Part shown: positions 1 to 31,936 of the stretch, one piece after another
How the letters are laid out: each line of letters starts with the position of its first letter
How positions within the stretch are numbered: the stretch's first letter is position 1
Assembly (NCBI GenBank): GCA_965219575.1
Contig: OZ244779.1
Location: 1,800,352 to 1,864,351 of the forward strand
Length of the DNA stretch: 64,000 nt
Origin: Candidatus Oxydemutatoraceae bacterium
GTDB taxonomy: Bacteria; Pseudomonadota; Gammaproteobacteria; Poriferisulfidales; Oxydemutatoraceae
Reading direction: 5' to 3'
Notes under the pieces: model-generated
Database searches by the model: none
Told to the model about the DNA's origin: nothing
The model's input: the letters and a program-made list of their open reading frames with translations, nothing else
Position numbers and translations under genes: made by a program

Positions 1-284
1 ACCCCCCATAAGAGCACCTTCTAGGAAAACTTTGGCTCGCACCTTTACATTAGTTGTCGACATATCTATTTGTGCATTTGCCGATAGAGAATACACGCTA
101 GCCGTTATAGCTATAACGCTTAAAAACGACATCCTAATAATCCCCCTGACGTTCTCCTTCTTTTTAGTGTCCATATCCAAAGTTAGTTTTCATGCTATTA
201 CTCTCGCAGATATACTAGGAATTGATACTCTAATGCGATAGTTTACCATGCAATGGTTGTCGCACCGGCATATGAACATAGGTT

Positions 285-3200
285 CTACTGGAGCGGACCC
301 TCTAAAAATACTTTGGCGCGTATCCTAATAGCTGAAGCAGTGACATCCACCGACACAGTCTCACTATCGCTTAACCCGCCGCTATCGGTGGCGGTGAAGG
401 TAATCGTTGCTTCTCCTTCTTGCTCGGCACTAATCACAAAGGTTGTAATCGTATCCGTGGTTATATCGGCAGCTTGCACCGGTGTTACCGAAACAATCGT
501 TCGGCTCGACGACATCGCCTCCAATGTAACAATATCGTCCAAATTGAAATTATCATCCGCTACCAAGACAGCGATTTGAGCCGCACTATTGACCGGTAGC
601 GTTTGCGCCGATGACGGTGTAATCATAATCGTCGGTGTAGTATTCGCCTCCACTCGTACTTCAAATTGTGCCGAGACCTCCGAGTTTGCTACACCTCTGT
701 CGTCGTTCACCGTCACCGTAATCACCGCACGACCGGCACCGACACCGCTAACCTCAAGCGTACGGGTGGCATCGTCGGTTGCGATAATCGTTGCGGTTGC
801 AATCATACTATCGCCGGTATTAATTCTTACACTGAGGCTATCGTCGGCATCGGCATCGTTTATCGCAACATCAAACTCGGTACTCAAACCTTCCAACAAC
901 CTAATCGGTTGCTCGGGAATACCGCTCAGCGTCGGTGCCGTATTGACACGCACCACTAGCTCTACACTATCGCTTAACCCACCGCGGTCGGTTGCGGTGA
1001 AGGTAATCGTCGCTTCTCCGCCTTGCTCGGCACTAATCCTAAAGGTTGTAATCGTATCCGTGGTTATATCGGTAACTTGCGCCGGTGTCACCGATATAAT
1101 CGTTTGGCTTGACGACATTGCCGCCAGTGCGACAATATCATTCAAATCGAAATTGCTATCCGTAACCGAGACGATGGTATCGGTCGTGGTATTGACCGGT
1201 AGCGTTTGCGCCGATGACGGTGTAATCATAATCGTCGGTGTAGTGTTCGCTTCGACTTGTACTTCAAACTCTGCCGAGACCTCCGAGTTTGCTACACTTC
1301 TGCCGTCATTTACCGTCACCGTAATCGTTGCTTCGCCCTCACCGACACCGCTAACCTCAAGCGTACGGGTGGCATCGTCGGTTGCGATAATCGTTGCGGT
1401 TGCAATCATGCTATCGCTGGTATCAATTCGTACATTGAGGCTATCGTCGGCATCGGCATCGTTTACCGCAACAGAAAGCTCGGTACTCAAACCTTCCAAC
1501 AACCTGATGGGTTGCTCGGGAATACCGCTCAGCGTCGGTGCCGTGTTGACACGCACCGCTAGTTCTATACTATCGCTTAACCCGCCGATGTCGGTTGCGG
1601 TGAATGTAATCGTCGCTTCTCCGCCTTGCTCGGCACTAATCCTAAAGGTTCTACTCGTATCCGTCGTTATATTAGCAACTTGCACCGGTGTCACCGAAAC
1701 AATCGTTCGGCTTGACGACATTGCCGCTAATGTGACAATATCATTCAAATCGAAATTGCTATCCGTAACCGAGACGATGGTATCGGTCGTGCTATTGACC
1801 GGTAGCGTTTGCGCTGATGACGGTGTAATCATAATCGTCGGTGTAGTATTCGCCTCCACTCGTACTTCAAATTGTGCCGAGACCTCAGAGTTTGCTACAC
1901 CTCTGTCGTCATTCACCGTCACCGTAATCACCGCACGACCGGCACCGACACCGCTAACCTCAAGCGTACGGGTGGCATCGTTGGTTGCGATAATCGTTGC
2001 GCTCGCAATCATGCTATCGCCGGTATCAATTCTTATACTGGGGCTGTCATCGGCATCGGCATCGTTTACCGCAACAGAAAGCTCGGTACTCAAACCTTCC
2101 AACAACCTGATGGGTTGTTCGGGAATACCGCTCAGCGTCGGTGCCGTATTGACACGCACCGCTAGTTCTACACTATCGCTTAACCCGCCGATGTCGGTTG
2201 CGGTGAATGTAATCGTCGCTTCTCCGCCTTGCTCGGCACTAATCCTAAAGGTTCTACTCGTATCCGTCGTTATACCGCCAGTTTGCGTTGATGTCACCGA
2301 AACAATCGTTCGGCTTGACGACATTGCCTCCAGTGTGACGATATCGTCCAGATTGAAATTATCATCCGCCACCGAGACAACGATAGCCGCCGTGCTATTG
2401 ATTGGTAGCGTTTGCGCTGTTGATGGTGTAATCATAATCGTCGGTGTAGTATTCGCTTCCACTTGCACTTCAAATTGTTCCGAGATCCTTGAATTTGCTA
2501 CACCTCTGCCGTCATCCACCGTCACCTTAATCGTTGCCTCACCCTCACCGACACCGACAACCTCAAGTGTGCGGGTGGCATCGTCGGTTGCGATAATCGT
2601 TGCGGTTGCAATCATGCTATCGCTGGTATCAATTCTTACATTGAGGTTATCGTCTGCATCGGCATCGTTTATCGCAACATCAAACTCAGTACTCAAACCT
2701 TCCAATAATCTGATGGGTTGCTCGGGAATACCGCTCAGCGTCGGTGCCGTATTCACACGCACCGCTAGCTCGGCATGAGCACTCAAGCTGTTTCGGTCGG
2801 TTGCGGTGAATCTAATCGTCGCTTCTCCGCCTTGCTCGGCATTCAGCACGAAGCGCACACTCGTATCGGTCGTTATGTCGGCAATGCGCGCCGGCATCAC
2901 CGAGACCACCGATGGGGTTGACGATACCGCCGTCAATGTAACAACATCGTCCAAATCGAAATTGCTGTCCGCAACCGAGACGATGGTATCGGTCGTGCTA
3001 TTGACTGGTAGCGTTAGTGCCGATGACGGTGCAAGCAATAACGTTGGAACGGTATTCTCTTCCACCGTCACATCAAACACCAAAGAAGCCGTTGCATTGG
3101 CTTCGCCGGTGCCGTCATCCACCGTTGCGGTAATCATCGTCTCACCGGCACGCTCTCCGCTAATCGTAAGCATGCGGGTGGTTCCGTCCCCGCTAATCAT

Positions 3201-6200
3201 TGCGCTTGCAATCGTATCGTCGGTGGAGGTGACTTCTACATTCAATGTACTGCCGTCCCTATCGTCCACCGACACCGGCACCATGATTAGCTCTCCCTCC
3301 AACAATGTGATATTGGTGTCTTGGGAGTCATCAACCCTAATCGTCGGTGTCGTGTTTTGTCCCAGCCTCGCACCTAGATTCGACGAGTATACACTCCTCG
3401 TATAGTCTTGCAAGTCGGTATACGCTATCCGCACACGGAACCTGTCGCCTGGGCTTACTTCATGGTCTTGAGGTGCCGATAACGTGGTCGGAACATCGTA
3501 GGAAATCTCAATATCGCCTAAAGTGCCACTCTGCCCGGCAATGTCTTCCCAACCCGAACCGTCACCCTCATCTATCAGACAATTCCTGTTGAGACTTCCT
3601 AGACACTGTTGCCAGTGATAGGTCATAGTTCCGCTCACGCCACCGTCGGTCTCACCCGTCGCATCTATGCCGGTAAAGATTAATATTGTCTCGGTCGTAG
3701 ATCTGGTGAGGTCATTTATCGACACCACGCCATTATCTTCCTTGTTCACCACTATCGCGTACACTCCTGTCGTAGTAGTCGCCCCGTCGCTCACTTCCAC
3801 CACAAAGCTCGCCGTCGCCGTAGTAGCAGTTGCGTCGGTCACAAAGTAGTCGCGAATAGTTAACGGTGCCGTCTCTCCCGACACATCGGCTTCGTCGGCA
3901 TTGATGCTACTCACACGCCAACGATAGCTTAAGTTGTCGAAGTTCTCGTCGGAAGCCTCGGCAGTCATCCTCACCATGCCACCTTCGCTCACCGGTGAAG
4001 GTGCGACATTAACCAGCGTAATCGTCGGTGCAATGTTCGGTACCGTATACACATCGGATTGCGTCGTCACCAATTGTCCGATGTTATCTACAACCGTTGC
4101 CTCCAGCCTATAGCGTGTGCCGGCGGTTCGCGACGGTCTATCGTAGGGGATGCGATATTCATTCTCGGTTGCACCGTCTATCAAAGTGTTGTTAATGAAC
4201 CACCGATAGCTCGTCGACGTAATCCCGTTGGCATCGGCGAGCGTTGAAGTCGTACTCAGCTGCCATCTATCGTCGCTGTCCGGTTCTATGCGTACAGCAC
4301 CGGTCAGCGGGGCATCTACCACTAGTGTGAAGCTCGCCTGCACGCGACCACCTCTGCCGTCATCCGCCGAGACTCTCACGATGGATCCTGCCGCGGTTTG
4401 GCTGGCATCGGCATTGGTTGCCGTGAAGGTCCATACACCGGTCATGGTGCTGAAGTTGCCTATCAAGCCACTCATCGGTTCTATTGCAATATCGTGTGTC
4501 AATGTGTCGCCGTCGGCATCGCTGAAGAAGTCGCTGATATCTCGTTCAAACGGCTCGCCGACCGTTGCGATAATAGCTCGAATCGGCACCCGAGGTGTCG
4601 GTGGAGTATTGACAGCTACCTCCAAAGTACGACTACTGCTTAAATCTGTGCCATCTGTTGCGGTCACTTTGATTTCCGCTATACCCGCTTTGTTCGCTCT
4701 CAGTGCCAAGGTTACACGGGTATCCGACCCGATATCGCCAATCCGCTCCGGCATCACCGATACGATCGTTCGGCTCGACGATGCTGCCGTCAATGTGATA
4801 CGATCGCCGAAGCTAAAATTACCATCCGATACACTAATCACTAGGTGTGCGGTGCTGCCCAGTTGTATCGGCTGTTCAGGTGTGGCAACAATCTCAAGTG
4901 CCGGGGCCACGGTGCCCCCCACCTGCACCGTAAATTGTGCCGAGACCTCCGAGTTCGCTACACCTCTGCCGTCGTTCACCGTCACGGTAATCGTCGTATT
5001 GCCGGCACCGACACCGACAATCTCAAGCGTGCGGACATTACCGGTGGTTGCGATAATCGTTGCGGTTGCAATCATGCTGTCGCTACTATCAATTCTTACA
5101 CTGAGACTATCTTCGGCATCGGCATCGTTTATCGCAATATCAAATTCGGTACTCAAACCTTCCAACAACCTGATGGGTTGCTCGGGAATACCGCTCAGCG
5201 TCGGTGCCGTATTGACACGCACTGGTATTTCTACACTATCGCTTAACCCACCGCGGTCGGTTGCGGTAAATGTGATTGTCGCTTCTCCGCTTCGCTCGGC
5301 ACTAATTATAAAGGTTGTAATCGTATCCGTGGTTATATCGGCAACTTGTGTCGGTGTCACCGAAACAATCGTTCGGCTTGACGACATCGCCTCCAGTGCG
5401 ACGATATCGTCCAAATTGAAGTTATCATCCGCCACCGAGACGAATATATGAGCCGTACTATTGATTGGTAGCGTTTGAGCCGATGACTGTGTAATCATAA
5501 TCGTCGGTGTAGTGTTCGCTTCCCGGGGGCTAATCATATAAATAGTAACCTCGCGATCGGCTTCGGTGACCGTGATGACTAATGCGGTGTTTGCATCTAT
5601 AGGAATAGGCTCGCTTCGCCCGTCGCCACCTTGGTTTGCAAAATAATCGGTATCCTCGCCTTGTCTAACTATTTTGATCGTCGCATCGGTATTATAGGCT
5701 TTTAATCGCAGGGTGATGTCACTAGTCCTAAAAGCAAAAAAACTTACAACATAATGGGCGGTTGTAGCCCCGAAAATTGGGGTCAATCTTGCACCGTGTG
5801 TCAATACTTCTAAATCTCTTAGACCTACGCCTTGACCCGACAACAAAATATCGCTATCCGCAGATTTGAGGATCGGATATTGGATGCTAGTACCGAAATC
5901 CCAGTCGCCGGTACTCCAGCCACTATATATCCCGGTTGCCGTTGTCGGTGATTGCAGTTCCACTAGGGTTTGCGTTGAACTGTTTGTGATAGTAGGAGAA
6001 CCAGAAGAAGAACCGACTAAGGTGTTAAAACCCGTCGCATAGCTATTCGTGATGGAACCACTAAAATACCAACCAACTAATCCGCCTACCCTGCGACCCC
6101 CTGATAAAACAGAACCCGTGGCATAGCTGTTCATGATGGAACCAACAGAATTTAAACCGACTAAACCACCTACATTATTATTTGCTTCAACAGAACCCAT

Positions 6201-9200
6201 CGCATAGCTATTCGTGATAGCACCCTGAGAATTATAACCGACTAAACCGCCTACCTCACTACTCCCTGAAACAGAACTCGTCGCATAGCTGTTCGTGATA
6301 GTGCCTCTATTAAAACCGACTAAACCGCCCACACTACTCCCTGAAACAGAACCCGTCGCATAGCTGTTCGTGATAGTACTACCAATATTCTCACCGACTA
6401 AACTACCTACATTAGAACCCCCAATAATGTCTACATTTAGCAAACCAACATTAGCGATTTCAGCATCACTGTTCGTATAACCAAACAAGCCTATGTTCCT
6501 CGTACCACTTCTGTCAATCCTAAGATTAGAAATCGTAAAACCATTGCCTTCAAACCTGCTTCTGAAAGCATTAGAAGAAGAATCCCCAAGCGGCTGCCAA
6601 CCTGCTCTCGTAGTCCATGTAATCCTATTGACTGTTGAGCTATAGCTGTCATCGTCGTTAAAATCTAAATCTCTCATCAATTCATAGCCCATGCATATAT
6701 CATTAGGACAACCCTCGGTGCTTCCCGTCGCCGTCTCGGCGGTTGCCCTATAGCTCGTGCCGTCCAGTTGAAAGCGGATTGCATTTAAGGTTTCTAAATC
6801 GTTGATATCTATCAGCCCGTTGCCATCGGCATCTACGGCGGTACTCGCTTCCATTGGTGCCGTATTGACCCGCACCAATAATTCTACACTATCGCTTAAC
6901 CCGCCGCTGTCGGTGGCGGTGAATGTGATCGTCGCTTCTCCACCTTTCTCGGCACTAATCATAAAGGTCGTACTCGTATTCGTGGTTATATTAGTAACTT
7001 GCACTGGTGTCACCGAAACAATCGTTCGGCTTGACGACATCGCTTCCAATGCAACTATATCGTCCAAATTGAAGTTATCATCCGCCACCGAGACAACGAT
7101 ATGAGCTGTACTATTGACCGATAGCGTTTGAGCCGATGACGGTGTAATCATAATCGCCGGTGCAATGTTCGCTCCTACTTGAGGGCTAACCATATGAATA
7201 CTAATCATATAAATAGTGGTTCCGGCATCGGCTTCGGTGACCGTAATGACTAATGTAGTGTTTGCGTTTATAGGAATAGGCTCGCTTCGCCCATCACTGC
7301 CCTTGTTTTCAAAATAATCGGTATCCTCGCCTTGTTTAACTACCTTAATCACCGCACCAGCATTATAGGCTTTCAATCGAAGGCTGATGTCGCTCGTCCC
7401 GGAAGCAAGAAAACTTATAACATAATGGGTCGTTGTCGCCCCGAAAATCGGGCTCAATCTTGTACCGGATGTCAATACTTCTAAATCTCTTAGACCTACG
7501 CCTTGACTCGACAACAGAATATCGCTATCTGCAAATTTGAGGATTGGATATTGGATACTAGTACCGAAATCCCAGTCATCGGTACTCCAGTTATAGTATA
7601 TATCACTGGAGGTACTGCTCGTGTCGGTCGCTACTTGCAATTGCTGTGTAGTTGCACCCCTACCACCGGAACTTGTCTGTATTCCGCTGGTACTTATATC
7701 CCAGTAGCTGTTTGTGATTGTGCCGTCATTATCACCAACTAAACCGCCTACACGACCACCTCCTGAAACAGAACCCGTCGCATAGCTGTTCATGATGGTG
7801 CCTCCATTATAACCAACTAAACCGCCGACGGAGAAATTACCACTCGCTGAAACAGAACCCGTCGCATAACTGTTCGTGATTATGCCTTGATTTCGACCGA
7901 CTAAACCGCCTACAATGAAATCTCCAGGAACAGAACCCGTTGCATAGCTGTTCATGATGGTGCCGTCATTCCAACCGACTAAACCGCCTGCATTGCCATC
8001 CCCTGGAACAGAACCCGTCGCATAGCTGTTCATGATGGTGCCATTCAAATTATAACCGACTAAACCGCCTGCATTGCCGTCCCCTGAAACAGAACCCGTC
8101 GCATAGCTATTCGTGATGGTACCGTCATTCCAACCGACTAAACCGCCAGCACTCGCACTATCACTCTCTAAAACAAAACTCGCCGCATAGCTGTTCGTGA
8201 TTGTGCCACCACTATTCCGACCGACTAAACCGCCTGCAGTGCGGGTCCCTGAAACAGAACCCGTCGCATAGCTGTTCGTGATAATACCGTCATTCCAACC
8301 GACTAAACCGCCTACATTGGAAGCACCCATGATATCTACATTTAACAAACCAACATTAGCAATTTCGGCACTACCTCCCGTAGAACCGAACAAACCTATG
8401 TTGCTTGTGCCACTTCTGTCAATCATAAGATTAGAAATCGTGAAACCGTTGCCTTCAAACTGACCGCTGAAAGCATTAGAGAGAGAATTCCCAATCGGCT
8501 GCCAACCGGCTCCCGTAGTCCATATAATTCTGTTGGCTATTGAACTATAGCTGCCATCTTCGTTAAAGTCTAAATCTCTCGTCAATTCATAGCCTCTGCA
8601 TCCGTTATTAGGGCAACCCATCGAAACCTTAGGCACCGTCTCACTCTCTCTATAGCCCGTCCCGTCCAGTTGATAACGCATCGCATTCAGTCTCTCTAAG
8701 TTATCAACCTCTATCAAACCATCGTCATCCCTATCGACATCTCCGTTAAACTCATAATAATTAAGGTAGAGAGTATAAGTAATAGTCTGTGTTGTTTCAC
8801 CACCATTCTCAACCTCAATGGTGATTGTAGTTATCCCGTCTGTGTTTAACGAAATCATACCACTTTCATCACCACTAGCTATGGCTGGACTTCTAGTTTC
8901 TTCATCAGCCGTAATATAAACCTTGGCACCGGGATTTAATGTTATCGGTCTGAATTGTATTGTGCTGGCACTACTAACTACCGTCCCTCTGTAGTTCGGC
9001 ACTACCACATCAAAATCAGGCGACAGATTACCCTCCACTAATTGCAATTCACTCAAACCATATCTAAGTGCAGGCGACAACAAGCTACCGCAGACAGGTA
9101 AATCTGTTGTAGTATCGCCCACACGACGACATTCGCTAATATCTGTGTTAGGATTATCCGTATATTTGAGCACCGGGTATTGGACGCTAGTGCCGAAATC

Positions 9201-10178
9201 CCAGTCATCGGTACTCCAGTTATAGTATATCTCGGCAGAGGTGCTGCCCGGACCAGTTGCTGCTTGCAGTTCTACCGTGGTTTGACTCGTGCCACCGGCA
9301 CTTGTCTCTATTCCACTGCTATTTATATCCCAATAGCTGTTTGTAGTAGTTCCGAAATTACGACCAACTAAACCGCCTACATTATCACCGCTCCCTGAAA
9401 CAGAACTCGTTGCATAGCTGTTCGTGATGATGCCACCATTCTCGCCGACTAAACCGCCTACACCGAAATCTCCTGAAACAGAACCCGTCGCATAGCTGTT
9501 CGTGATGATGCCACCATTCTCGCCGACTAAACCGCCTACACCGAAATCTCCTGAAACAGAACCCGTCGCATAGCTGTTCGTGATGGTGCCTCTATTCTCA
9601 CCGACTAAACCGCCTACACTATTATTTCCTGAAACAGAACCCGTCGCATAGCTGTTCGTGATGGTGCCTCTATTCTCACCAACTAAACCACCTATCTGAT
9701 TTCTCCCTTCAACAGAACCCGTCGCATAGCTGTTCGTGATGGTGCCTCTATTCTCACCGACTAAACCGCCTACCCTATCGCTAAAACCTCCTATTATATT
9801 TACATTTAATAAACCCAGATTAGCAATTTCAGCACTACTTCCCGTATGACCAAACAAGCCTATTTCACTCGTGTCACTTCTGTCAATCCTAAGATTAGAA
9901 ATCGTAAAAACGTTGCCTTCAAACTTGCCTCTGAAAGCATTAGAAGAATCCCCAATCGGCTGCCAACCTGCTCCCGTAGTCCATGTAATCCTATTAGCTA
10001 TAGAACCATAACTGCCAGCGTCGTTAAAGTCTAAATCTCTCGTCAGTTCATAGCCTCTGCATCCGTCATTAGGGCAACCTGTCACAACTTTAGGTGCCGC
10101 CTCGCTCTCTCTATAGCCCGTCCCGTCCGGTTGATAACGTATCGCATTCAGTCCCTCTAAATCATCAATCTCTATCAA
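285..10178 (-). CDS. Giant repetitive surface/adhesin protein, 3' (C-terminal) portion. It was cut off from its 5' portion by an IS insertion. It contains dockerin-like Ca-binding segments, GLUG-type GGLVG Gly-rich repeats, cadherin-like beta-sandwich domains and about 12 tandem Ig-like domains. This fragment has no signal peptide of its own.
   Basis: 3297-aa ORF. It has repeated DxDGNGLIDINDLExLNAIRYQxDG segments and many VGGLVGxNxGTITNSYATGSVSG units. LSPALRYGL...TYTLYL domains match the cadherin-like beta-sandwich pattern. A ~202-aa module at the C-terminus is repeated five times nearly identically. The upstream frame continues without interruption into the IS target duplication at 10219-10226. 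Confidence 0.85.
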   Translation of the reverse strand: MIEIDDLEGLNAIRYQPDGTGYRESEAAPKVVTGCPNDGCRGYELTRDLDFNDAGSYGSIANRITWTTGAGWQPIGDSSNAFRGKFEGNVFTISNLRIDRSDTSEIGLFGHTGSSAEIANLGLLNVNIIGGFSDRVGGLVGENRGTITNSYATGSVEGRNQIGGLVGENRGTITNSYATGSVSGNNSVGGLVGENRGTITNSYATGSVSGDFGVGGLVGENGGIITNSYATGSVSGDFGVGGLVGENGGIITNSYATSSVSGSGDNVGGLVGRNFGTTTNSYWDINSSGIETSAGGTSQTTVELQAATGPGSTSAEIYYNWSTDDWDFGTSVQYPVLKYTDNPNTDISECRRVGDTTTDLPVCGSLLSPALRYGLSELQLVEGNLSPDFDVVVPNYRGTVVSSASTIQFRPITLNPGAKVYITADEETRSPAIASGDESGMISLNTDGITTITIEVENGGETTQTITYTLYLNYYEFNGDVDRDDDGLIEVDNLERLNAMRYQLDGTGYRESETVPKVSMGCPNNGCRGYELTRDLDFNEDGSYSSIANRIIWTTGAGWQPIGNSLSNAFSGQFEGNGFTISNLMIDRSGTSNIGLFGSTGGSAEIANVGLLNVDIMGASNVGGLVGWNDGIITNSYATGSVSGTRTAGGLVGRNSGGTITNSYAASFVLESDSASAGGLVGWNDGTITNSYATGSVSGDGNAGGLVGYNLNGTIMNSYATGSVPGDGNAGGLVGWNDGTIMNSYATGSVPGDFIVGGLVGRNQGIITNSYATGSVSASGNFSVGGLVGYNGGTIMNSYATGSVSGGGRVGGLVGDNDGTITNSYWDISTSGIQTSSGGRGATTQQLQVATDTSSTSSDIYYNWSTDDWDFGTSIQYPILKFADSDILLSSQGVGLRDLEVLTSGTRLSPIFGATTTHYVISFLASGTSDISLRLKAYNAGAVIKVVKQGEDTDYFENKGSDGRSEPIPINANTTLVITVTEADAGTTIYMISIHMVSPQVGANIAPAIMITPSSAQTLSVNSTAHIVVSVADDNFNLDDIVALEAMSSSRTIVSVTPVQVTNITTNTSTTFMISAEKGGEATITFTATDSGGLSDSVELLVRVNTAPMEASTAVDADGNGLIDINDLETLNAIRFQLDGTSYRATAETATGSTEGCPNDICMGYELMRDLDFNDDDSYSSTVNRITWTTRAGWQPLGDSSSNAFRSRFEGNGFTISNLRIDRSGTRNIGLFGYTNSDAEIANVGLLNVDIIGGSNVGSLVGENIGSTITNSYATGSVSGSSVGGLVGFNRGTITNSYATSSVSGSSEVGGLVGYNSQGAITNSYAMGSVEANNNVGGLVGLNSVGSIMNSYATGSVLSGGRRVGGLVGWYFSGSITNSYATGFNTLVGSSSGSPTITNSSTQTLVELQSPTTATGIYSGWSTGDWDFGTSIQYPILKSADSDILLSGQGVGLRDLEVLTHGARLTPIFGATTAHYVVSFFAFRTSDITLRLKAYNTDATIKIVRQGEDTDYFANQGGDGRSEPIPIDANTALVITVTEADREVTIYMISPREANTTPTIMITQSSAQTLPINSTAHIFVSVADDNFNLDDIVALEAMSSSRTIVSVTPTQVADITTDTITTFIISAERSGEATITFTATDRGGLSDSVEIPVRVNTAPTLSGIPEQPIRLLEGLSTEFDIAINDADAEDSLSVRIDSSDSMIATATIIATTGNVRTLEIVGVGAGNTTITVTVNDGRGVANSEVSAQFTVQVGGTVAPALEIVATPEQPIQLGSTAHLVISVSDGNFSFGDRITLTAASSSRTIVSVMPERIGDIGSDTRVTLALRANKAGIAEIKVTATDGTDLSSSRTLEVAVNTPPTPRVPIRAIIATVGEPFERDISDFFSDADGDTLTHDIAIEPMSGLIGNFSTMTGVWTFTATNADASQTAAGSIVRVSADDGRGGRVQASFTLVVDAPLTGAVRIEPDSDDRWQLSTTSTLADANGITSTSYRWFINNTLIDGATENEYRIPYDRPSRTAGTRYRLEATVVDNIGQLVTTQSDVYTVPNIAPTITLVNVAPSPVSEGGMVRMTAEASDENFDNLSYRWRVSSINADEADVSGETAPLTIRDYFVTDATATTATASFVVEVSDGATTTTGVYAIVVNKEDNGVVSINDLTRSTTETILIFTGIDATGETDGGVSGTMTYHWQQCLGSLNRNCLIDEGDGSGWEDIAGQSGTLGDIEISYDVPTTLSAPQDHEVSPGDRFRVRIAYTDLQDYTRSVYSSNLGARLGQNTTPTIRVDDSQDTNITLLEGELIMVPVSVDDRDGSTLNVEVTSTDDTIASAMISGDGTTRMLTISGERAGETMITATVDDGTGEANATASLVFDVTVEENTVPTLLLAPSSALTLPVNSTTDTIVSVADSNFDLDDVVTLTAVSSTPSVVSVMPARIADITTDTSVRFVLNAEQGGEATIRFTATDRNSLSAHAELAVRVNTAPTLSGIPEQPIRLLEGLSTEFDVAINDADADDNLNVRIDTSDSMIATATIIATDDATRTLEVVGVGEGEATIKVTVDDGRGVANSRISEQFEVQVEANTTPTIMITPSTAQTLPINSTAAIVVSVADDNFNLDDIVTLEAMSSSRTIVSVTSTQTGGITTDTSRTFRISAEQGGEATITFTATDIGGLSDSVELAVRVNTAPTLSGIPEQPIRLLEGLSTELSVAVNDADADDSPSIRIDTGDSMIASATIIATNDATRTLEVSGVGAGRAVITVTVNDDRGVANSEVSAQFEVRVEANTTPTIMITPSSAQTLPVNSTTDTIVSVTDSNFDLNDIVTLAAMSSSRTIVSVTPVQVANITTDTSRTFRISAEQGGEATITFTATDIGGLSDSIELAVRVNTAPTLSGIPEQPIRLLEGLSTELSVAVNDADADDSLNVRIDTSDSMIATATIIATDDATRTLEVSGVGEGEATITVTVNDGRSVANSEVSAEFEVQVEANTTPTIMITPSSAQTLPVNTTTDTIVSVTDSNFDLNDIVALAAMSSSQTIISVTPAQVTDITTDTITTFRISAEQGGEATITFTATDRGGLSDSVELVVRVNTAPTLSGIPEQPIRLLEGLSTEFDVAINDADADDSLSVRINTGDSMIATATIIATDDATRTLEVSGVGAGRAVITVTVNDDRGVANSEVSAQFEVRVEANTTPTIMITPSSAQTLPVNSAAQIAVLVADDNFNLDDIVTLEAMSSSRTIVSVTPVQAADITTDTITTFVISAEQEGEATITFTATDSGGLSDSETVSVDVTASAIRIRAKVFLEGPLQ
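290..3400. repeat. Near-identical tandem DNA repeats, period about 606 bp and about 5 copies, inside the giant adhesin gene. More diverged copies continue to about 5500.
   Basis: Antisense ORFs at 666-959, 1257-1562 and 1872-2165 are near-identical and spaced about 606 bp apart. The protein shows 5 copies of a 202-aa unit. Confidence 0.8.
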
Positions 10179-10226: not shown

Positions 10227-10979
10227 GGTACTTGACTAGTTTAGGGACAAAATCCCACTCAAATATCCCTTACCATCTTCATTAGCATATCATACTTTTG
10301 GGAGGCTGAAAGGTGCCTGTGATTGAATCGCCACTCGCATTCTTTTAGATGAAGATGGAAATGTTTTCTCGACACGCCGCAGAACTTTGTTAATCTCCTT
10401 TTTGCCCATCCCCAAAAGTTTTCAATGCCATTGATATGTCTAGTACCACTGCCCAGTGTCTTTGAATGATTGATGCGGTAGTGTTTGTATCCATTCAACA
10501 CCAACCCGCCATAAGCTCTCCATTTGTCTGTGTATATAGTACTCTGATGTCCCACTAAACGCTTGATAATAGGTCGTATCCCGCTCTTTGAAGCATTTCG
10601 TATCACCTGCGTATAGACCTTCCCATCTCTTTTTAATATGCCGAATACCGGTACTTTGTTCGGTGCACCTCTACCTCTTTTGTCTCCCTTTTTGCGACCA
10701 CCGAAGTAGGACTCATCCAACTCTACCTCGCCGGAGAATACGCTCGTCTTCTCGCAGTGTTGTGCAATTCTTTCTCGGATTATATTGACATATCTATTCA
10801 CTGTATTTCTATTGACCCCGGCTGCTTGTGCGATTTGGGTTGCACTCAAATCAAGGGCAAAATACCTTACAATTTGCCTTATTTTCCTGTTTGAAATATG
10901 TGCCCCTCTAAAATGCCTGTTAGGTGTTGTCATTACTAGTTATTTTATCAAATCGTACTCCCTAAACTAGTCAAGTACC
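10227..10979 (-). mobile_element. IS1595-family insertion sequence, 753 bp. It has perfect 21-bp terminal inverted repeats GGTACTTGACTAGTTTAGGGA. An 8-bp target-site duplication TAATTAAG lies at 10219-10226 and 10980-10987.
   Basis: The inverted repeats were read directly at 10227-10247 and 10959-10979. The flanking 8-mer is identical on both sides. The single internal ORF is an IS1595-type transposase. Confidence 0.9.
10259..10933 (-). CDS. IS1595-family (ISXO2-like) transposase
   Basis: 224-aa protein with an N-terminal HTH region (ATQIAQAAGVNRNTVNRY). It carries the characteristic YTDKWRAYGGL and INGIENFWGWAKRRL motifs of IS1595 transposases. Confidence 0.85.
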   Translation of the reverse strand: MTTPNRHFRGAHISNRKIRQIVRYFALDLSATQIAQAAGVNRNTVNRYVNIIRERIAQHCEKTSVFSGEVELDESYFGGRKKGDKRGRGAPNKVPVFGILKRDGKVYTQVIRNASKSGIRPIIKRLVGHQSTIYTDKWRAYGGLVLNGYKHYRINHSKTLGSGTRHINGIENFWGWAKRRLTKFCGVSRKHFHLHLKECEWRFNHRHLSASQKYDMLMKMVRDI

Positions 10980-13264
10980 TAATTAAGATACAAAGTATAA
11001 ATAACAATCTGTGTTGTTTCACCACCATTCTCAACCTCAATGGTGATTGCAGTTATCCCGTCGGTGTTTAACGAAATCATACTACTCTCATCACCACTAT
11101 CTATAGCTATACCTCTAGCTTCTTCATCAGCCCTAATATAAACCTTGGCATCGGGATTTACTGTTATTGGTCTGAACCGGATTGTGCTTGTACTATGAAC
11201 TACCGTTCCTCTGTAGCTCGGCAATATCACATCAAAATCAGGCAATAAATCGCCTTCCACTAATTGCAATTCACCCAAACCATACCTCAGTGCAGGCGAC
11301 AACAAACTACCACAGACAGGTAAATCTGTTGCAGTATCACTTACACTACGACATTCGCTAATATCCGTGTTAGGATTATCCGTATATTTGAGCACCGGGT
11401 ACTGGCTATCAGTGCCGAAATCCCAATTCGTGTTACTCCATTCGTAATAGGGTTTGCCGGGGTCTGTGCCTTGTGCACTTTCTGCTTTCAATTCCACCGT
11501 GGTTTTACTCGTGCCACCGTCACTTATCTTTATTCCGCTGGTATTTATATCCCAGTAGCTACTCGTGATAGTACCATCATTATTCCGACCGATTAAACCG
11601 CCTACACCATTACTCCCTTCAACAGAACCCGTCGCATAGCTGTTTGCGATGGCACCACTAAAATAATTCTGACCGACTAAACCGCCTGCATTGCCGTCCC
11701 CTGAAACAGAACCCATCGCATAGCTGTTCGTGATGGTACCGCCGTTCTCACCGACTAAACCGCCTACATTAAAACGATCCCCAATAACAGAACCCGTCGC
11801 ATAGCTGTTCGTGATATTGCCGCCCCTATTACCACCGACCAAACCGCCTACATAGTCATCTCCTGAAACAAAACCCGTCGCATAGCTGTTCGTGATATTG
11901 CCGGCACTATTATCACCGACTAAACCGCCTACACGACCACTCCCTGAAACAGAACTCGTCGCATAGCTGTTCACGATGGTGCCGCCGTTCTCACCGACTA
12001 AACCGCCGAAACCGAAGATATCGAAGAAACCGCGAAGATCACTACTCCCTGAAACAGAACCTGTCGCATAGCTGTTTGTGATGGTGGCACCAAAACGATT
12101 CCGGCCGACTAAACCGCCAAAACCGGCTAAACGACCGAAACCGCCGAAATCGAAGAAATCGCGAAGATCACCACTCCCTGAAACAGAACCCGTCGCATAG
12201 CTGTTCACGATGGTGCCGCCGTTCTCACCGACTAAACCGCCGAAACCGACTAAACCGCCGAAACCGACTAAACCGCCGAAATCGCGAAGATTACCACTCC
12301 CTGAAACAGAACCCGTCGCATAGCTGTTCGTGATAGTGCCACCGTCATTCCTACCGACTAAACCGCCGAAACCGACTAAACCGCCGAAATCGAAGAAATC
12401 GCGAAGATTACCACTCCCTGAAACAGAACCCGTCGCATAGCTGTTCGTGATAGTGCCACCGTCATTCCTACCGACTAAACCGCCTACACTGCTACTCCCT
12501 AAAACAGAACCCGCCGCATAGCTGTTCGTGATTGTGCCACCGTCATTCCTACCGACTAAACCGCCTACACTGCTACTCCCTAAAACAGAACCCGTCGCAT
12601 AGCTGTTCGTGATTGTGCCGCCATTCTCACCGACTAAACCGCCTACCCCATTGCTAAAACCTCCGATTATATTTACATTTAGTAAGCCCAAATTAGCGAT
12701 TTCAGCACCACCGTCCGTACGACCAAACAAGCCTATTTGACCTGTGCCACCTCTGGCAATCGTAAGATTAGAAATCGTAAAATCGTTGCCTTCAAACCAA
12801 CCGCTGAAAGCATTAGAAAAGTCCCCGATCGGCTGCCAACCTGCTCCCGTAGTCCATATAACCTTGTTAGCTGTTGAACTATAGCTGTCATCGTCGTTAA
12901 AATCTAAGTTTCTTTTCAATTCATAGCCTCTGCAGATATCATTAGGGCAGCCTTCAGTAATCCCCGTCGCCCCGGCGGTTGCTTTATAGCTGGTGCCGTC
13001 CGGTTGAAAGCGGATTGCATTTAAGGTTTCCAAATCGTTGATATCTATCAGCCCGTTGCCATCGGCATCTACGACGGTATTAGTTTGAGCAACTATGTTC
13101 GTGCTGAATAGTGCGAGTAGAATAATCAACAAGAGGGTTTTCATGGAAATTATATATATTGTAAATACTGGGATTGTACAGCCAATATGCACACATGGGA
13201 CTGTTGAAAAAGTACCGCTCTGCACGAATTCAACCGCTTTTCGCCACATAATTATCCAACCCAC
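10979..13264 (-). CDS. Giant adhesin, 5' (N-terminal) portion. It has a Sec signal peptide, a dockerin-like segment, GLUG-type repeats and a cadherin-like beta-sandwich domain. It is terminated by a stop codon created at the IS junction.
   Basis: The N-terminus MKTLLLIILLALFSTNIVAQT looks like a signal peptide. Its architecture matches the modules of the 285-10178 fragment. The stop codon TAG spans the target duplication and the first base of the IS inverted repeat. Confidence 0.85.
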   Translation of the reverse strand: MGWIIMWRKAVEFVQSGTFSTVPCVHIGCTIPVFTIYIISMKTLLLIILLALFSTNIVAQTNTVVDADGNGLIDINDLETLNAIRFQPDGTSYKATAGATGITEGCPNDICRGYELKRNLDFNDDDSYSSTANKVIWTTGAGWQPIGDFSNAFSGWFEGNDFTISNLTIARGGTGQIGLFGRTDGGAEIANLGLLNVNIIGGFSNGVGGLVGENGGTITNSYATGSVLGSSSVGGLVGRNDGGTITNSYAAGSVLGSSSVGGLVGRNDGGTITNSYATGSVSGSGNLRDFFDFGGLVGFGGLVGRNDGGTITNSYATGSVSGSGNLRDFGGLVGFGGLVGFGGLVGENGGTIVNSYATGSVSGSGDLRDFFDFGGFGRLAGFGGLVGRNRFGATITNSYATGSVSGSSDLRGFFDIFGFGGLVGENGGTIVNSYATSSVSGSGRVGGLVGDNSAGNITNSYATGFVSGDDYVGGLVGGNRGGNITNSYATGSVIGDRFNVGGLVGENGGTITNSYAMGSVSGDGNAGGLVGQNYFSGAIANSYATGSVEGSNGVGGLIGRNNDGTITSSYWDINTSGIKISDGGTSKTTVELKAESAQGTDPGKPYYEWSNTNWDFGTDSQYPVLKYTDNPNTDISECRSVSDTATDLPVCGSLLSPALRYGLGELQLVEGDLLPDFDVILPSYRGTVVHSTSTIRFRPITVNPDAKVYIRADEEARGIAIDSGDESSMISLNTDGITAITIEVENGGETTQIVIYTLYLN
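12229..12282. repeat. In-frame 18-bp microsatellite, unit accgactaaaccgccgaa, three copies here encoding (GGLVGF)n. Shorter tracts of one or two copies lie nearby.
   Basis: Direct tandem copies are seen in the DNA. The protein reads DFGGLVGFGGLVGFGGLVGENGG. Confidence 0.75.
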
Positions 13265-15121: not shown

Positions 15122-16736
15122 ATTAACCGGCGGCAAGATTTACGATCCGCTCAACGGGGTCGACGGTACGGTTGCCGATCTTTATATAAAAGATGGAAGA
15201 ATTATTCCGCCTCCGAACGACACCGACAAATATACCGTATACGATATCGCCGGCAGCGTAGTGATGCCGGGGGCAATCGATATACATACGCATATCGGCG
15301 GCGGCAAAGTCAATATCGCCCGCTGTATGATGAACGATGTACACGGAGCAGGCTGCGAAGGCGATGCGCTCGACACTCACAATGCCGGTATCCGCTATGC
15401 CGAGATGGGATACACCGCCGGTTTCGAGCCGGCAATGCTCGCTTGCAATGCGCGGCAAGCGCACTTGGAGATGGCCGATACACCCTGCGTCGATACCGGT
15501 GCTTATATCATGGTCGGAAATACCGATTTGTTTTTGAAATTGCTGGCAACCAAAGCCGATCCCAAAACCATACGCGACTATGTCGCTTGGATGATAGACA
15601 AAACCCAAGCGATAGCGGTTAAAATAGTCAACCCCGGCGGCATCAACGCGTTCAAGTTCAATCAGCGCAAGCTCGATATAGACGAAGCCTCGGTTCCTTA
15701 CGGTGTAACACCGCGTCAAATCGTGGAATGTCTGACGCGAACACTCAACGAACTCAATACACCGCACCCTTTGCATGTCCATGCCAGCAACTTGGGGGTG
15801 CCGGGAAATTATAGAACGACGCTTGATACGATCAAGGCTGCCGACGGTTATCCGATGCATCTGACGCATATACAATTTCATAGCTACGGCACCGAGGGTG
15901 ACAAACGCTTTTCGTCCGCTGCCGCCGAGATCTCCGAAGCTATCAACAACAATCCACATCTGACCACCGATGTAGGGCAGATTATGTTCGGTCAGACTGT
16001 CTCTACATCGGGAGATAATATGATGCAATACGCACACCATCCGCATGCCTCACCGGATAAATGGACGGTGATGGATATAGAAGCCGAAGCCGGTTGTGGG
16101 GTGGTGCCGTTTCATTACCAAGATAAAAAATTCGTCAATGCGCTACAATGGGCTATCGGCTTGGAAATTTTCCTATTAATCAAAGATCCGTGGCGTGTTT
16201 TCTTGACCACCGACCATCCGAACGGTGCACCTTTCACGAGTTACCCGCACTTGATACGCTTACTGATGGATCGCAGTTATCGCATCGATATGTTCTCGAG
16301 ATTACACCCCGAAGCCAGAAAAATGTCAACTTTAGACAGTATCAAAAGAGAATATTCTCTGTACGAAATTGCCGTAATGACCCGCGCAGCACCGGCGCGT
16401 AGTTTGGGGCTTCGCAATAAAGGACATTTAGGGGTCGGTGCCGATGCCGATGTCGTCGTCTACATACCCTCGCAAAATGTAGAGCAGATGTTTGCACACC
16501 CGCGTTATGTATTCAAAAACGGGGAATTGATGGTCAAAGACGGCAAGGTAATAAAAATACCGCCTTCTTACACCCATGTCGTTAAACCCGAATACGACTC
16601 CGGAATTGAGAAAATTATCAAGGCGCACTATGAAGACTATCGCACCGTCGGTTTCGAGAACAGTCAAATTAGTAATACCGAGATGGCCGAACAAATAGGC
16701 AGCCCTGTTGTCGAACACCCATGTCGAACCCCATAG
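15111..16736 (+). CDS. fhcA: Formyltransferase/hydrolase complex subunit A (FwdA-like amidohydrolase)
   Basis: PGAIDIHTHIGGGKVN metal-binding amidohydrolase motif. 541 aa. Its stop overlaps the start of the next gene. Confidence 0.85.
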   Translation: MMIKLTGGKIYDPLNGVDGTVADLYIKDGRIIPPPNDTDKYTVYDIAGSVVMPGAIDIHTHIGGGKVNIARCMMNDVHGAGCEGDALDTHNAGIRYAEMGYTAGFEPAMLACNARQAHLEMADTPCVDTGAYIMVGNTDLFLKLLATKADPKTIRDYVAWMIDKTQAIAVKIVNPGGINAFKFNQRKLDIDEASVPYGVTPRQIVECLTRTLNELNTPHPLHVHASNLGVPGNYRTTLDTIKAADGYPMHLTHIQFHSYGTEGDKRFSSAAAEISEAINNNPHLTTDVGQIMFGQTVSTSGDNMMQYAHHPHASPDKWTVMDIEAEAGCGVVPFHYQDKKFVNALQWAIGLEIFLLIKDPWRVFLTTDHPNGAPFTSYPHLIRLLMDRSYRIDMFSRLHPEARKMSTLDSIKREYSLYEIAVMTRAAPARSLGLRNKGHLGVGADADVVVYIPSQNVEQMFAHPRYVFKNGELMVKDGKVIKIPPSYTHVVKPEYDSGIEKIIKAHYEDYRTVGFENSQISNTEMAEQIGSPVVEHPCRTP

Positions 16737-17641
16737 AAGGTATCACTATCAACGGCGTAGAAATAGAGAATACCTACGCCGAGGCTTTCGGCATGAGAGC
16801 GACCCGCATCATTATCACTGCGATCAACTACAAATGGGCGCATTATGCGGCAAGCACGACGGTCGGTTTTGCAACTTCGGTGATAGGTTGCAATGTAGAA
16901 GCCGGTATAGAACGCCGCTATAAATCCTCCGAGACACCCGACAGCAGACCGGGCTATTCGGTTTTGCTGTTTGCGACTTCCACCGAAAGTCTAAGCGATC
17001 AACTGACGCGACGAGTCGCTCAATGCGTGCTGACCTGCCCTACCAGTGCGGTATTCTCCGGCATGGCCGGCGAGCGCAGAATTGCACTCGGACGTTATGT
17101 TCGTTATTTCGGAGACGGTTATCAGTCTTCCAAAGTGATAGGGGGAACACGCTATTGGCGGGTGCCGGTGATGGACGGCGAGTTTATCTGCGAGGACGAT
17201 ACCGGCGTGGCATCGGGAATCGGCGGCGGTAATTTTTTGATCTTTGCTCGCTCGTCGTCGCAAGCCCTACAGGCATGCGAAGCCGCAATCGATAGCATCT
17301 CGGACTTGCCGAATCTTGTTCTGCCGTTTCCCGGCGGCGGTGTGCGCTCGGGATCCAAGGTCGGCTCTCGCTATAAGTTCCTCGGCGCATCTACAAACGA
17401 ACAGTATTGTCCTACCTTAAAAGGCATTGTTGATAGCAAACTGCGCGCCAATACCGGGGCGGTGATGGAAATCGTGATAGACGGGCTCAATGTGCAAGAC
17501 ATCATAGATGCGATGCGAGTCGGCATTACCGCAGTCTGCGAGTTGGGATTATCCGAGGGAATAACGACAATCTCGGCGGGCAATTACGGTGGAAATCTAG
17601 GAAAATATCAATTTCATTTGTGGGAGATTATAGGCGCATGA
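16721..17641 (+). CDS. fhcD: Formylmethanofuran--tetrahydromethanopterin N-formyltransferase
   Basis: The N-terminus MSNPIEGITINGVEIENTYAEAFGMRATRIIITA is the typical Ftr start (INGVEIEDTFAEAF). Confidence 0.85.
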   Translation: MSNPIEGITINGVEIENTYAEAFGMRATRIIITAINYKWAHYAASTTVGFATSVIGCNVEAGIERRYKSSETPDSRPGYSVLLFATSTESLSDQLTRRVAQCVLTCPTSAVFSGMAGERRIALGRYVRYFGDGYQSSKVIGGTRYWRVPVMDGEFICEDDTGVASGIGGGNFLIFARSSSQALQACEAAIDSISDLPNLVLPFPGGGVRSGSKVGSRYKFLGASTNEQYCPTLKGIVDSKLRANTGAVMEIVIDGLNVQDIIDAMRVGITAVCELGLSEGITTISAGNYGGNLGKYQFHLWEIIGA

Positions 17642-30850: not shown

Positions 30851-31936
30851 CTAGGTAAACACATTATTCTTGCAAAGATATTCGCTCATTCTCGCTTGAC
30901 ATTCTGCTAACCGCTTTCTTGAGAGCTCACAGTAAGTGGAATCTATATCAATACCTAGATAATGGCAATCCTCTTCCATAGCGGCAATAGCCGTTGTGCC
31001 GCTCCCGCTATACGGGTCCAGAACGATGCCGTTCTTCGGTGAAAGCAGTTTTATAATTTCTTTGATAATTGAAAGAGGAAATATAGCACTGTGTTTATTT
31101 CCGGGAATTGATTCAACCGACGAAATAATCACATCCTTTTTCATTTTCTTTCCATGTATTTTAATAATAGTGTAACCGTTCTTCTCGATCTGGCTTTTAC
31201 GCCCCCCTTCTTGCCCTCCGAAAGCCTCTGCGTGTATTCCGCGAATCTTCATACGAAATCCCTCTATTTTAGATTCTTTTACTTCTTCAGTAACCTCGTC
31301 GAGAGATTTATGCGCTTTTCTTTTCAGCTCCGAAGATAAATCCGAATTTTCAATCAATGTCCTATATCTTTCTCCTAATCTATTTGAAGGCTTATGCCGT
31401 TTTCTTTCGTCTACCTCGTTAAAAAATTTATCGGGGTTGTAATAATATTTTGTACCTTTTACAAAATGAAAAAATGGTTCCGTGCTACTTACCAGACGCC
31501 GCCCGAATTGCCTCGGTGTGGGGTTTCTCTTTACCCAAGTTATTTCATTGACAAGCTTCACACTATGGTCATTAGTTGCTTTTATGGCAAATCTATACGG
31601 CACAAGTAAAAGCGAACCATTCAGATATTTATCACCGATGTTATAAACGATATTTCCCGAAGGTTTTACTACTCTGACAATTTCCGAAAATACTTCAAGT
31701 AGAGAGTCAATATAAGACTCAACCGTTTTTTCGTGACCGGTCCCGATTCCCATTCCGTTATAATTTCGTTGCATATAGTACGGTGGGGATGTCACCACTA
31801 AATCAATACTATTATCCGGTAACTGCTTCAGCAAAAAAGCGGCATCTCCACACTGTATTGAATCTATTAGGCAATTCATCCGGCTTTTATGTGAAAGACC
31901 CTTTTGGGATTTTTCTAATTCTATAAAAGAACTCAT
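30851..31936 (-). CDS. Beta-class amino-DNA methyltransferase (N6-adenine or N4-cytosine). It appears to be an orphan.
   Basis: Motif IV VTSPPYY lies near the N-terminus. Motif I VLDPYSGSGTT lies near the C-terminus. GC content is low. No restriction endonuclease ORF is adjacent. Confidence 0.8.
   Translation of the reverse strand: MSSFIELEKSQKGLSHKSRMNCLIDSIQCGDAAFLLKQLPDNSIDLVVTSPPYYMQRNYNGMGIGTGHEKTVESYIDSLLEVFSEIVRVVKPSGNIVYNIGDKYLNGSLLLVPYRFAIKATNDHSVKLVNEITWVKRNPTPRQFGRRLVSSTEPFFHFVKGTKYYYNPDKFFNEVDERKRHKPSNRLGERYRTLIENSDLSSELKRKAHKSLDEVTEEVKESKIEGFRMKIRGIHAEAFGGQEGGRKSQIEKNGYTIIKIHGKKMKKDVIISSVESIPGNKHSAIFPLSIIKEIIKLLSPKNGIVLDPYSGSGTTAIAAMEEDCHYLGIDIDSTYCELSRKRLAECQARMSEYLCKNNVFT

Follow-up and report, generated by a model that had tools for sequence, protein, structure and literature searches.

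A 64,000-nucleotide stretch of DNA from a Candidatus Oxydemutatoraceae bacterium (contig OZ244779.1, positions 1,800,352 to 1,864,351 of the forward strand; hereafter the window) encodes two secreted repeat proteins that differ greatly in length, yet share a short motif at their extreme C-termini. What could such a motif be for? One of the proteins is a giant adhesin, whose open reading frame (ORF) ends ...DVTASAIRIRAKVFLEGPLQ before a TAG stop at 285-287, and the other is a protein of 943 residues (p943), which ends ...IIGVILRIKLFLEGALQ before a TAA stop at 35238-35240. An earlier note, made from the letters of this DNA alone, had reported the common motif and proposed that it serves a dedicated export, anchoring or processing system. 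Translations of the two ORF ends agree with the first part of that report. Here we find that the motif is a 15-residue tag at the end of many unrelated secreted proteins from sponge symbionts, and that it closely resembles the opening segment of a secreted domain, exactly the segment that small symbiont versions of the domain lack. We propose that the tag may be a detached beta-strand that docks to the shortened domain.

To survey its distribution, we scanned 185,579 species-representative genomes with a degenerate DNA pattern for K-x-F-L-E-G-x-L-Q-stop and obtained 66 matches. Thirty-five fell in three metagenome-assembled genomes (MAGs) named "candidatus Porisulfidus" (16, 11 and 8 matches), a symbiont of sponges that belongs to the Gammaproteobacteria and is related to the SUP05 sulfur oxidisers. 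Each of these 35 closes an ORF, in most cases one of hundreds to over 2,500 codons, and carries the extended motif [IV][RK][ILV][RH]xKVFLEGxLQ. The other 31 are single matches in unrelated taxa. Most of them lie in ORFs of 9-50 codons, the basic upstream part is missing from all 31, and their number is about that expected by chance. Across the adhesin genes, the window is 75-85% identical in nucleotide sequence to the Porisulfidus MAG loci. At the protein level, a tail profile was run exhaustively with HMMER against 1.84 billion representative proteins (E<=0.001) and gave 120 matches, with the tag at the extreme C-terminus in 72 and internal in none, although tag-only matches score close to the reporting threshold and weak internal copies may have been missed. 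The remaining matches align only to the Ig-like part of the profile. A 40-residue tail profile, for which 88 candidates were scored, returned five short fragments. Together, these results show that the occurrence of the tag is real and far beyond chance.

The tag is also retained as its carriers diverge. All ten p943 homologs, which come from several assemblies and are 49-70% identical, terminate in ...R[IA]KLFLEG[AP]L[QR]. Of the four proteins closest to the giant's C-terminal region, three (P0014, P0015 and P0017; 43-69% identity) end in the tag and differ in the domains that precede it, and the fourth (P0016) has no tag. A variant ending in PLR occurs in MAGs labeled "Chromatiales bacterium" at NCBI and in one genome of 42% G+C. 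The search for further tagged proteins suggested in the earlier note has thus yielded many carriers, with orthologs keeping the tag at the very C-terminus.

An alignment of 101 unique tags gives the consensus [GA]-I-R-[IVL]-R-[AVI]-K-V-F-L-E-G-P-L-[Q/R]-COOH. Hydrophobic and basic residues alternate strictly along these 15 positions, K/R, F, L, E and G are invariant, and the stop follows exactly three residues after the Gly in 98 of the 101. Most tags end in PLQ (58), followed by PLR (16), ALQ (6) and other endings. The terminal residue is Q, R or E, and the basic residues stand upstream of FLEG. Codon usage was analyzed at the positions outside the search pattern (I/L-R-I/L-R-A/V). Codon positions 1 and 2 contain 0.4-1.8 bits there; at position 3, four of the five codons are close to random (0.03-0.12 bits). 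Tags are followed by each of the three stop codons, and DNA conservation in the 90 nt past the stop does not exceed 0.16 bit. Because third positions are near-random, three stops are used and conservation ceases at the stop, we conclude that selection acts on the tag peptide and not on the DNA. These data rule out that the tag originated as the end of a mobile element, as a terminator or through recent duplication.

Several sequences come close to the tag. The end of a 979-residue ORF at locus L003 (...VKIRVSVKV-stop) looked like a truncated tag and was rejected, as nothing follows it in any frame. P0030 (1,723 residues) is the same giant as read in another assembly, where a frameshift of one base disrupts the T-run of its tag (...AKVFF RGSAPVEP...), probably a homopolymer assembly error. 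An identical nine-codon frame, stop-KVFLEGIFQ-stop, is present in three unrelated Bacteroidia/Chitinophagaceae MAGs (L017, L028 and L033) and is probably a conserved sequence read in another frame.

Complete carriers of the tag begin with Sec signal peptides. A heuristic check passed 23 of 53 proteins with a Met start, and many of the others are truncated gene calls. Their recognizable domains comprise S8 subtilase with P-domain, cadherin-like, GLUG, He_PIG, PKD and Big_2/Big_9, some carriers have none, and the longest has 6,772 residues. Homologs of p943 add a lysyl-endopeptidase-like protease: p943 itself is without this N-terminal serine protease domain (PF27052, ...TAFHC...GASGS...), which is present in longer homologs of 1,081-1,437 residues (comparison with P0002-P0010, L001 and L002). 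We modeled p943 with AlphaFold2 (AF2) from a shallow ten-sequence alignment, both as a 220-residue construct and at full length. The last beta-sandwich ends at ...YSLAVII, and the tag that follows is coil with a predicted local distance difference test (pLDDT) score below 50. Docking of the tag in cis on the protein's own domains is seen in neither construct.

The tag fits no known family of sorting signals. Bare tails gave zero matches to Pfam and NCBIfam models even at E<=10, and the motif strings were not found in the literature searched; within these sources, the tag has not been described before. Small C-terminal sorting domains have been defined by a set of criteria that includes a transmembrane helix (criterion 4) and an Arg cluster (criterion 5) (Haft, 10.1101/2023.06.07.544157). 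By criteria 1, 2, 3, 6 and 7 the tag resembles the tripartite signals (LPXTG/sortase, PEP-CTERM/exosortase, GlyGly-CTERM/rhombosortase and MYXO-CTERM/myxosortase): like them, it is C-terminal, occurs in multiple copies per genome, has invariant residues and is found on unrelated carriers with signal peptides. Unlike them, it has no transmembrane segment, no terminal Arg cluster and no NCBIfam match, which confirms the impression at first reading that no membrane helix follows the tag and that known signals do not account for it. Since the helix and the Arg cluster are both missing, the tag is not of the sortase, exosortase or rhombosortase type.

Other export signals also differ from it. The type IX C-terminal domain (CTD) likewise marks diverse Sec-exported surface proteins, including giant adhesins and proteases, but it is a folded domain of ~70-100 residues, is restricted to Bacteroidota and is removed by PorU. 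The tag, by contrast, has 15 residues and a gammaproteobacterial host, and neither tails nor whole proteins match Por_Secre_tail or CHU_C. Type I substrates have no Sec signal peptide; their signal is within the final ~50 residues and is usually accompanied by RTX repeats, whereas tag carriers have clear Sec signal peptides and no RTX matches. The beta-signal of outer-membrane proteins, read by the beta-barrel assembly machinery (BAM), is the C-terminal strand of a beta-barrel protein and has an aromatic end, usually Phe or Trp; the tag ends in Q, R or E, and its carriers are Ig-like repeat proteins rather than barrels.

If no processing signal matches the tag, does it have a binding partner? 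A 271-residue secreted protein is encoded 22 nt upstream of a 3,334-residue tagged adhesin (locus L072, adhesin P0033), and two further genomes show the same arrangement at the orthologous giants, where the gap is 29 nt before P0085 and 28 nt before P0089. The flanks of the three loci are conserved (mlaA-folE ... rpsO-pnp), and one of the two further genomes encodes a p943 homolog (P0010) on the same 2.56-Mb contig. These small proteins have 271-295 residues and share a signal peptide, STDPYC..GY, VSDWVLIELRAV, LYVVVRHINHLDVIS, YSYDFT and a true type-I dockerin pair (Pfam Dockerin_1, 32.9 bits against a cut-off of 22.9; E=1.9e-4 (2vn5_B) to 5e-3 against PDB dockerins). The tagged proteins themselves have no dockerin. 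When we looked for relatives of the small proteins' other domain by tblastn (loci compared, plasmids and phages) and in PDB, Pfam and NCBIfam, only the dockerin was found.

The lead to full-length homologs was a domain of the form ...KVFLEGAY...DWVLVELR...HRNHL..., which was confirmed only through scans for DWVLVELR and WVxxELR...HRNH; a KVFLEGAY...HRNHL regular expression matched nothing in the examined loci or in a literature search, and K-V-F-L-E-G-[AP]-Y gave only chance matches in viral contigs. Scanning viral contigs for DWVLVELR, and then for WVxxELR...HRNH, recovered two proteins of ~245 residues (L084 and L082) that are 30-33% identical to the symbiont small proteins. Their layout is signal peptide-...GYVEVNVKIFLEGPFDTDTMRTDL...PLEQPY...VVDWVLVELR...YHRNHL...LYDFT...dockerin pair. 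A divergent version forms the end of a 1,450-residue beta-helix protein (L089/L090; ...PTLIAKVFLGGAYDNGLMYDSL...PLSDPYPALGY...IVDWVVIELR...KHRNHL...dockerin-like pair). The domain signature is ...K-[VIF]-F-L-x-G-[AP]-[FY]...PY...DWVxxELR...HRNHL...YDFT, in a beta-rich domain that is not in Pfam. In one viral contig (L087 1454-6405; IMG/VR 3300009873_002490), a canonical small dockerin protein containing the opening segment is part of an overlapping gene string with homologs of the podophage GP4 fibre protein gp80 and fibre-tail adaptor gp77, and the intact domain may thus be an accessory of phage fibres or of phage attachment.

We call the opening segment of this domain strand 1, on the presumption that it is a beta-strand. 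Strand 1 reads [IV]-x-K-[VIF]-F-L-x-G-[AP]-[FY] and appears to be essentially the tag. It is VEVNVKIFLEGPF in L084, VEVNIKFFLQGPF in L082 and LIAKVFLGGAY in L089, and in each case it lies just upstream of the PY...DWVxxELR...HRNHL core, directly after the signal peptide in L084 and L082. The best match of a tag-only hidden Markov model (HMM) is to residues 32-39 of L084 (VKIFLEGP, 7.8 bits), a score reached by none of 5,000 shuffles (best shuffle, 4.9). In a six-protein alignment, the symbiont small proteins show a clean gap exactly over strand 1, and their signal-peptide cleavage site (between A and Q) abuts the loop that follows strand 1 in the canonical proteins. No strand-1-like coding sequence is present in any frame of the genes for these small proteins or their upstream DNA. 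A profile of the core without strand 1 matches only the symbiont and canonical family members among all ORFs and proteins compared, and the canonical contigs have no tags.

One adhesin shows that the motif is not strictly C-terminal. Directly downstream of the giant, the next adhesin gene carries a copy near its mature N-terminus (signal peptide ...SANA, cleavage, QIDMSTTNVKVRAKVFLEGALMGG...), followed by the Gly-rich linker GGSISEPPD, and a full-length ortholog (L003:8387-10294) reads ...ANA, cleavage, QMDMPTTNVKVRIKVFLEGSLIGG..., then GLUG repeats. The N-terminal copy and the giant's C-terminal copy differ mostly by synonymous changes. The N-terminal copy was found in one gene family; a metagenome scan for orthologs gave one distant match. 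At the orthologous loci L040 and L044 the N-tagged gene is absent, which suggests that the locus has been rearranged. About 100 nt past the adhesin stop are 70-80% conserved among these loci (window ~178-285, minus strand; L003 6116-6230; L040 2181-2290; L044 4070-4185), and the N-tagged gene's 5' leader, ATGAAAACTAAC..., falls within this stretch.

The C-terminus of the tag (...FLEGPLQ-COOH) and the mature N-terminus of the small symbiont protein correspond to adjacent positions of one ancestral domain, and on this ground we propose that the two dock. Domain fission is the most economical reading. Elsewhere, the beta-rich domain and the dockerin-like pair form one polypeptide; in Porisulfidus-like symbionts the domain would have been split, with its first strand moved to the C-termini of dozens of Sec-exported adhesins and proteases, and near the mature N-terminus of one adhesin, and the strand-less remainder becoming the small secreted type-I dockerin protein. 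After Sec export, the free, flexible tag would insert in the vacant strand-1 position (beta-strand complementation in trans), and the acceptor's dockerin would anchor the complex on the cell surface or on yet another partner, so that many different cargo proteins could be assembled on one adaptor. The N-terminal copy with its Gly-rich linker would dock likewise from the other end; the presence of the linker fits strand docking from either end. We put the probability that the tag is a detached strand docking in trans to a strand-less acceptor, by way of domain fission, at roughly 0.45. That the symbiont's whole repertoire of surface or secreted adhesins is organized on one adaptor in this way, as a natural, non-covalent many-to-one peptide tag/catcher system, is a shade more doubtful.

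For shared terminal docking, possibly with strand complementation, cohesin-dockerin systems and donor-strand exchange in pili are precedents. As in cellulosome-type cohesin-dockerin assembly, many secreted proteins carry one C-terminal docking module for a common partner, and the candidate acceptor has a type-I dockerin. The tag differs in being a 15-residue peptide instead of a Ca-binding dockerin of ~70 residues, in the strand-deficient beta-domain proposed as its partner in place of a cohesin, and in its Gram-negative sponge symbiont host. Chaperone-usher and type V pili resemble the proposed arrangement in that an incomplete beta-sandwich, here predicted from sequence, is completed by a strand of another polypeptide; their donor strands have alternating hydrophobics (I, I, A/V, V and L in the tag) and may be N- or C-terminal extensions. 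We found no dedicated periplasmic chaperone or outer-membrane usher genes in the window or the loci examined, pilin genes are not involved either, and here the donors would be dozens of unrelated giant adhesins and proteases, the acceptor one small adaptor, and the origin fission of a single domain. SpyTag/SpyCatcher and strand 11 of split GFP also use a short beta-strand peptide on a cargo to complete a strand-deleted domain. Those pairs are man-made, and SpyTag forms a covalent isopeptide, whereas the split of the tag would be natural and presumably non-covalent.

Several observations weigh against strand docking. Only three canonical sequences define strand 1, and two of them share 73% identity. 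The match between tag and strand 1 that was tested statistically spans only eight residues, and the FFLQGP variant of L082 is missed by the tag HMM. The symbiont acceptors have two lineage-specific insertions that could fill the vacant position in cis, one of ~8-10 residues after ELR and one of ~20 residues with a Cys pair and strand-like ...CPLVxFxF.... Among ~45 tagged-gene neighborhoods, the acceptor stands beside one tagged-gene family; its occurrences are in ENA assemblies, with none in the window or in the examined loci of the three Genome Taxonomy Database (GTDB) MAGs. No cohesin partner for the dockerin was found in the proteins scanned for domains. There is also some ascertainment bias, because the neighbor was inspected on account of a resemblance.

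We clustered all ORFs in the ~45 tagged-gene neighborhoods (within ~8 kb). No protease, sortase or transporter recurs there, and no cognate sortase, exosortase or intramembrane protease was found within that distance. The search for a co-occurring protease or sortase-like gene that the earlier note suggested thus gave no candidate in these neighborhoods. Its idea of a dedicated recognition motif holds insofar as secreted carriers are unrelated and the terminus is conserved; its processing branch finds no support in these neighborhoods. The tag behaves as a many-to-one recognition signal, and the evidence, as far as sequence can indicate function, points to non-covalent docking rather than to protease or sortase processing. 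The neighbors that do recur are antisense shadow ORFs, a methylase, DUF4143 ATPases and one orthologous metalloprotease/VWA locus. AAA_14/DUF4143 ATPase genes adjoin tagged genes at window 35352-36515 and 47052-48290 and at L003 6229-7122, and DNA methylase homologs (window 30851-31936) recur near tagged genes at four loci. A PilP-like/secretin/T2SSE-ATPase cluster adjoins different tagged giants in three genomes (L001 1-4575; L026 409-3056; L059 2-307). This association is weak, since all three cases represent a single orthologous locus and these small genomes consist in large part of giant tagged genes. Synteny probably explains it, and the cluster is still a candidate export route. Two short REP-like (repetitive extragenic palindrome) intergenic repeats, GGGCTGTTGAAAAAGTA[CT]... 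and the GC-rich hairpin CCCCTCCTGTGGAGGGGTG, lie 3' of many tagged Porisulfidus genes (e.g. L011, L018, L022, L042, L061 and L064), and also at window ~13200-13215 and L003 ~13230.

The tag could instead be a sorting, anchoring or export signal that other machinery of this lineage reads, for example a translocon in the outer membrane, a receptor on the surface or an escort in the periplasm. Its likeness to strand 1 would then be coincidental or only historical. The agreement with Haft's criteria 1, 2, 3, 6 and 7 is what such a signal would show, the tag is flexible and free in the AF2 models, its strict distance to the free carboxylate (98/101) suggests a pocket that reads the C-terminus, and the secretin/T2SSE-ATPase cluster stands beside different tagged genes in three genomes. 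We nevertheless regard this as less likely than strand docking: no candidate enzyme or receptor recurs near tagged genes, the secretin cluster amounts to one orthologous locus with weak adjacency, and the strand-1 match, the precise deletion of that strand and the gene adjacency would all be left unexplained. Direct, receptor-free anchoring to the outer membrane or lipopolysaccharide (LPS) would account for the strict hydrophobic/basic alternation of the 101 tags, as a cationic amphipathic beta-strand with I, I, A/V, V and L on one face and R, R, K, F and E on the other, and for a tag that works at either protein end; moreover, no receptor is proven. Such anchoring is improbable, as the invariance of F-L-E-G and an end three residues on go far beyond what lipid binding needs, and the net charge is only about +1.

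The N-terminal copy on the adhesin encoded directly downstream of a C-tagged one raises the further thought that tags pair with one another, C-tag with C-tag or with the N-terminal tag, and polymerize the adhesins into fibres or a matrix. Confinement of that copy to one gene family, its absence at L040 and L044, and the tagged proteases, which have no obvious reason to polymerize, make this slightly less probable again. Nor do we expect the tag to be a processing site or pro-peptide, absent from the mature protein, that the lineage's own tagged lysyl-endopeptidase-like or kexin-like proteases cut after Arg or Lys. Its Arg and Lys are invariant, S8/P-domain proteases are tagged and p943 has homologs with a lysyl-endopeptidase-like domain, but the basic residues alternate without a dibasic site, and VFLEGPL, the most conserved part, would lie past the putative cut without a role; we consider it very improbable. 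The chance that the motif is an artefact, either a translated DNA element (mobile-element end, terminator or recombination site) or the remnant of truncated genes, is close to nil. Some DNA similarity was noticed at first reading and repeat elements lie 3' of many tagged genes, yet near-random third positions, the use of three stops and the lack of conservation past the stop refute it, as does retention of the tag at 49-70% protein identity across assemblies. Set against these alternatives, strand docking remains our preferred reading.

Features of the tagged genes in the window (positions count from its first letter).
Feature	Position	Strand	Basis or content
C-terminal tag of giant GLUG/Big adhesin, AIRIRAKVFLEGPLQ	288-332	minus	translation; fits 101-tag consensus
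Giant adhesin ORF, distal 3,297 codons, tagged	285-10178	minus	GLUG, Big_2, Big_9
IS1595-family transposase splitting giant adhesin gene	10259-10933	minus	Pfam DDE_Tnp_IS1595, E=2.3e-34
N-terminal fragment of giant adhesin	10979-13264	minus	GLUG repeats; Sec signal peptide MKTLLLIILLALFSTNIVAQ
C-terminal tag of p943, GVILRIKLFLEGALQ	35193-35237	plus	kept in 10/10 homologs
p943, secreted, tagged	32409-35240	plus	signal peptide, two modules of unknown fold, five cadherin-like domains
N-terminal motif copy, NVKVRAKVFLEGAL	10-51	minus	six-frame scan; ~9 residues past predicted signal-peptide cleavage
5' end of N-tagged GLUG adhesin gene, leaving window	1-174	minus	ATG at 172-174 or 130-132

The giant's signal peptide and first GLUG repeats are on a separate fragment beyond the transposase, with a true start that is likely near 13144, and for this reason expression or export of the tagged part may have ceased in this genome. 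The earlier note had given both proteins a Sec signal peptide and cadherin-like domains, which is right for p943; the giant's signal peptide stands on that other fragment, and its domains are chiefly GLUG, Big_2 and Big_9, with a weak cadherin-like match on the N-terminal fragment as the only one. It had also placed the giant's motif at 285-326, a span that has the correct ORF end and covers the stop plus 13 residues rather than all 15 of the tag. GLUG modules in the giant adhesins (for example in the tagged ORF of the window, ...DADGNGLIDINDLETLNAIRF...) are each preceded by one Ca-binding segment that is dockerin- or EF-hand-like (DxDGxGLIxIxxLExLNAIR), and these segments could be relevant to dockerin-type interactions. 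The remainder of the window consists of ordinary housekeeping genes; the context (16721-17641, 40130-41407, 51027-53129 and 57142-57939) includes a formylmethanofuran-H4MPT formyltransferase, a GmrSD restriction enzyme, a prolyl oligopeptidase and CbbQ.

For the biology of these uncultured bacteria, the tag makes it possible to list their secreted adhesins and proteases from sequence alone, and it flags assembly errors such as the P0030 frameshift. If it is a docking or sorting signal, it represents a previously undescribed class, 15 residues at a free C-terminus with no membrane anchor, and it would govern those surface proteins that are largest (up to 6,772 residues) and most abundant in a widespread group of sponge symbionts and that are expected to mediate contact with the host. 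If the split-domain mechanism is right, the tag and its acceptor would be a natural counterpart of engineered tag/catcher pairs and a new route for assembling many proteins on one adaptor, beside cohesin-dockerin binding and pilus strand exchange.

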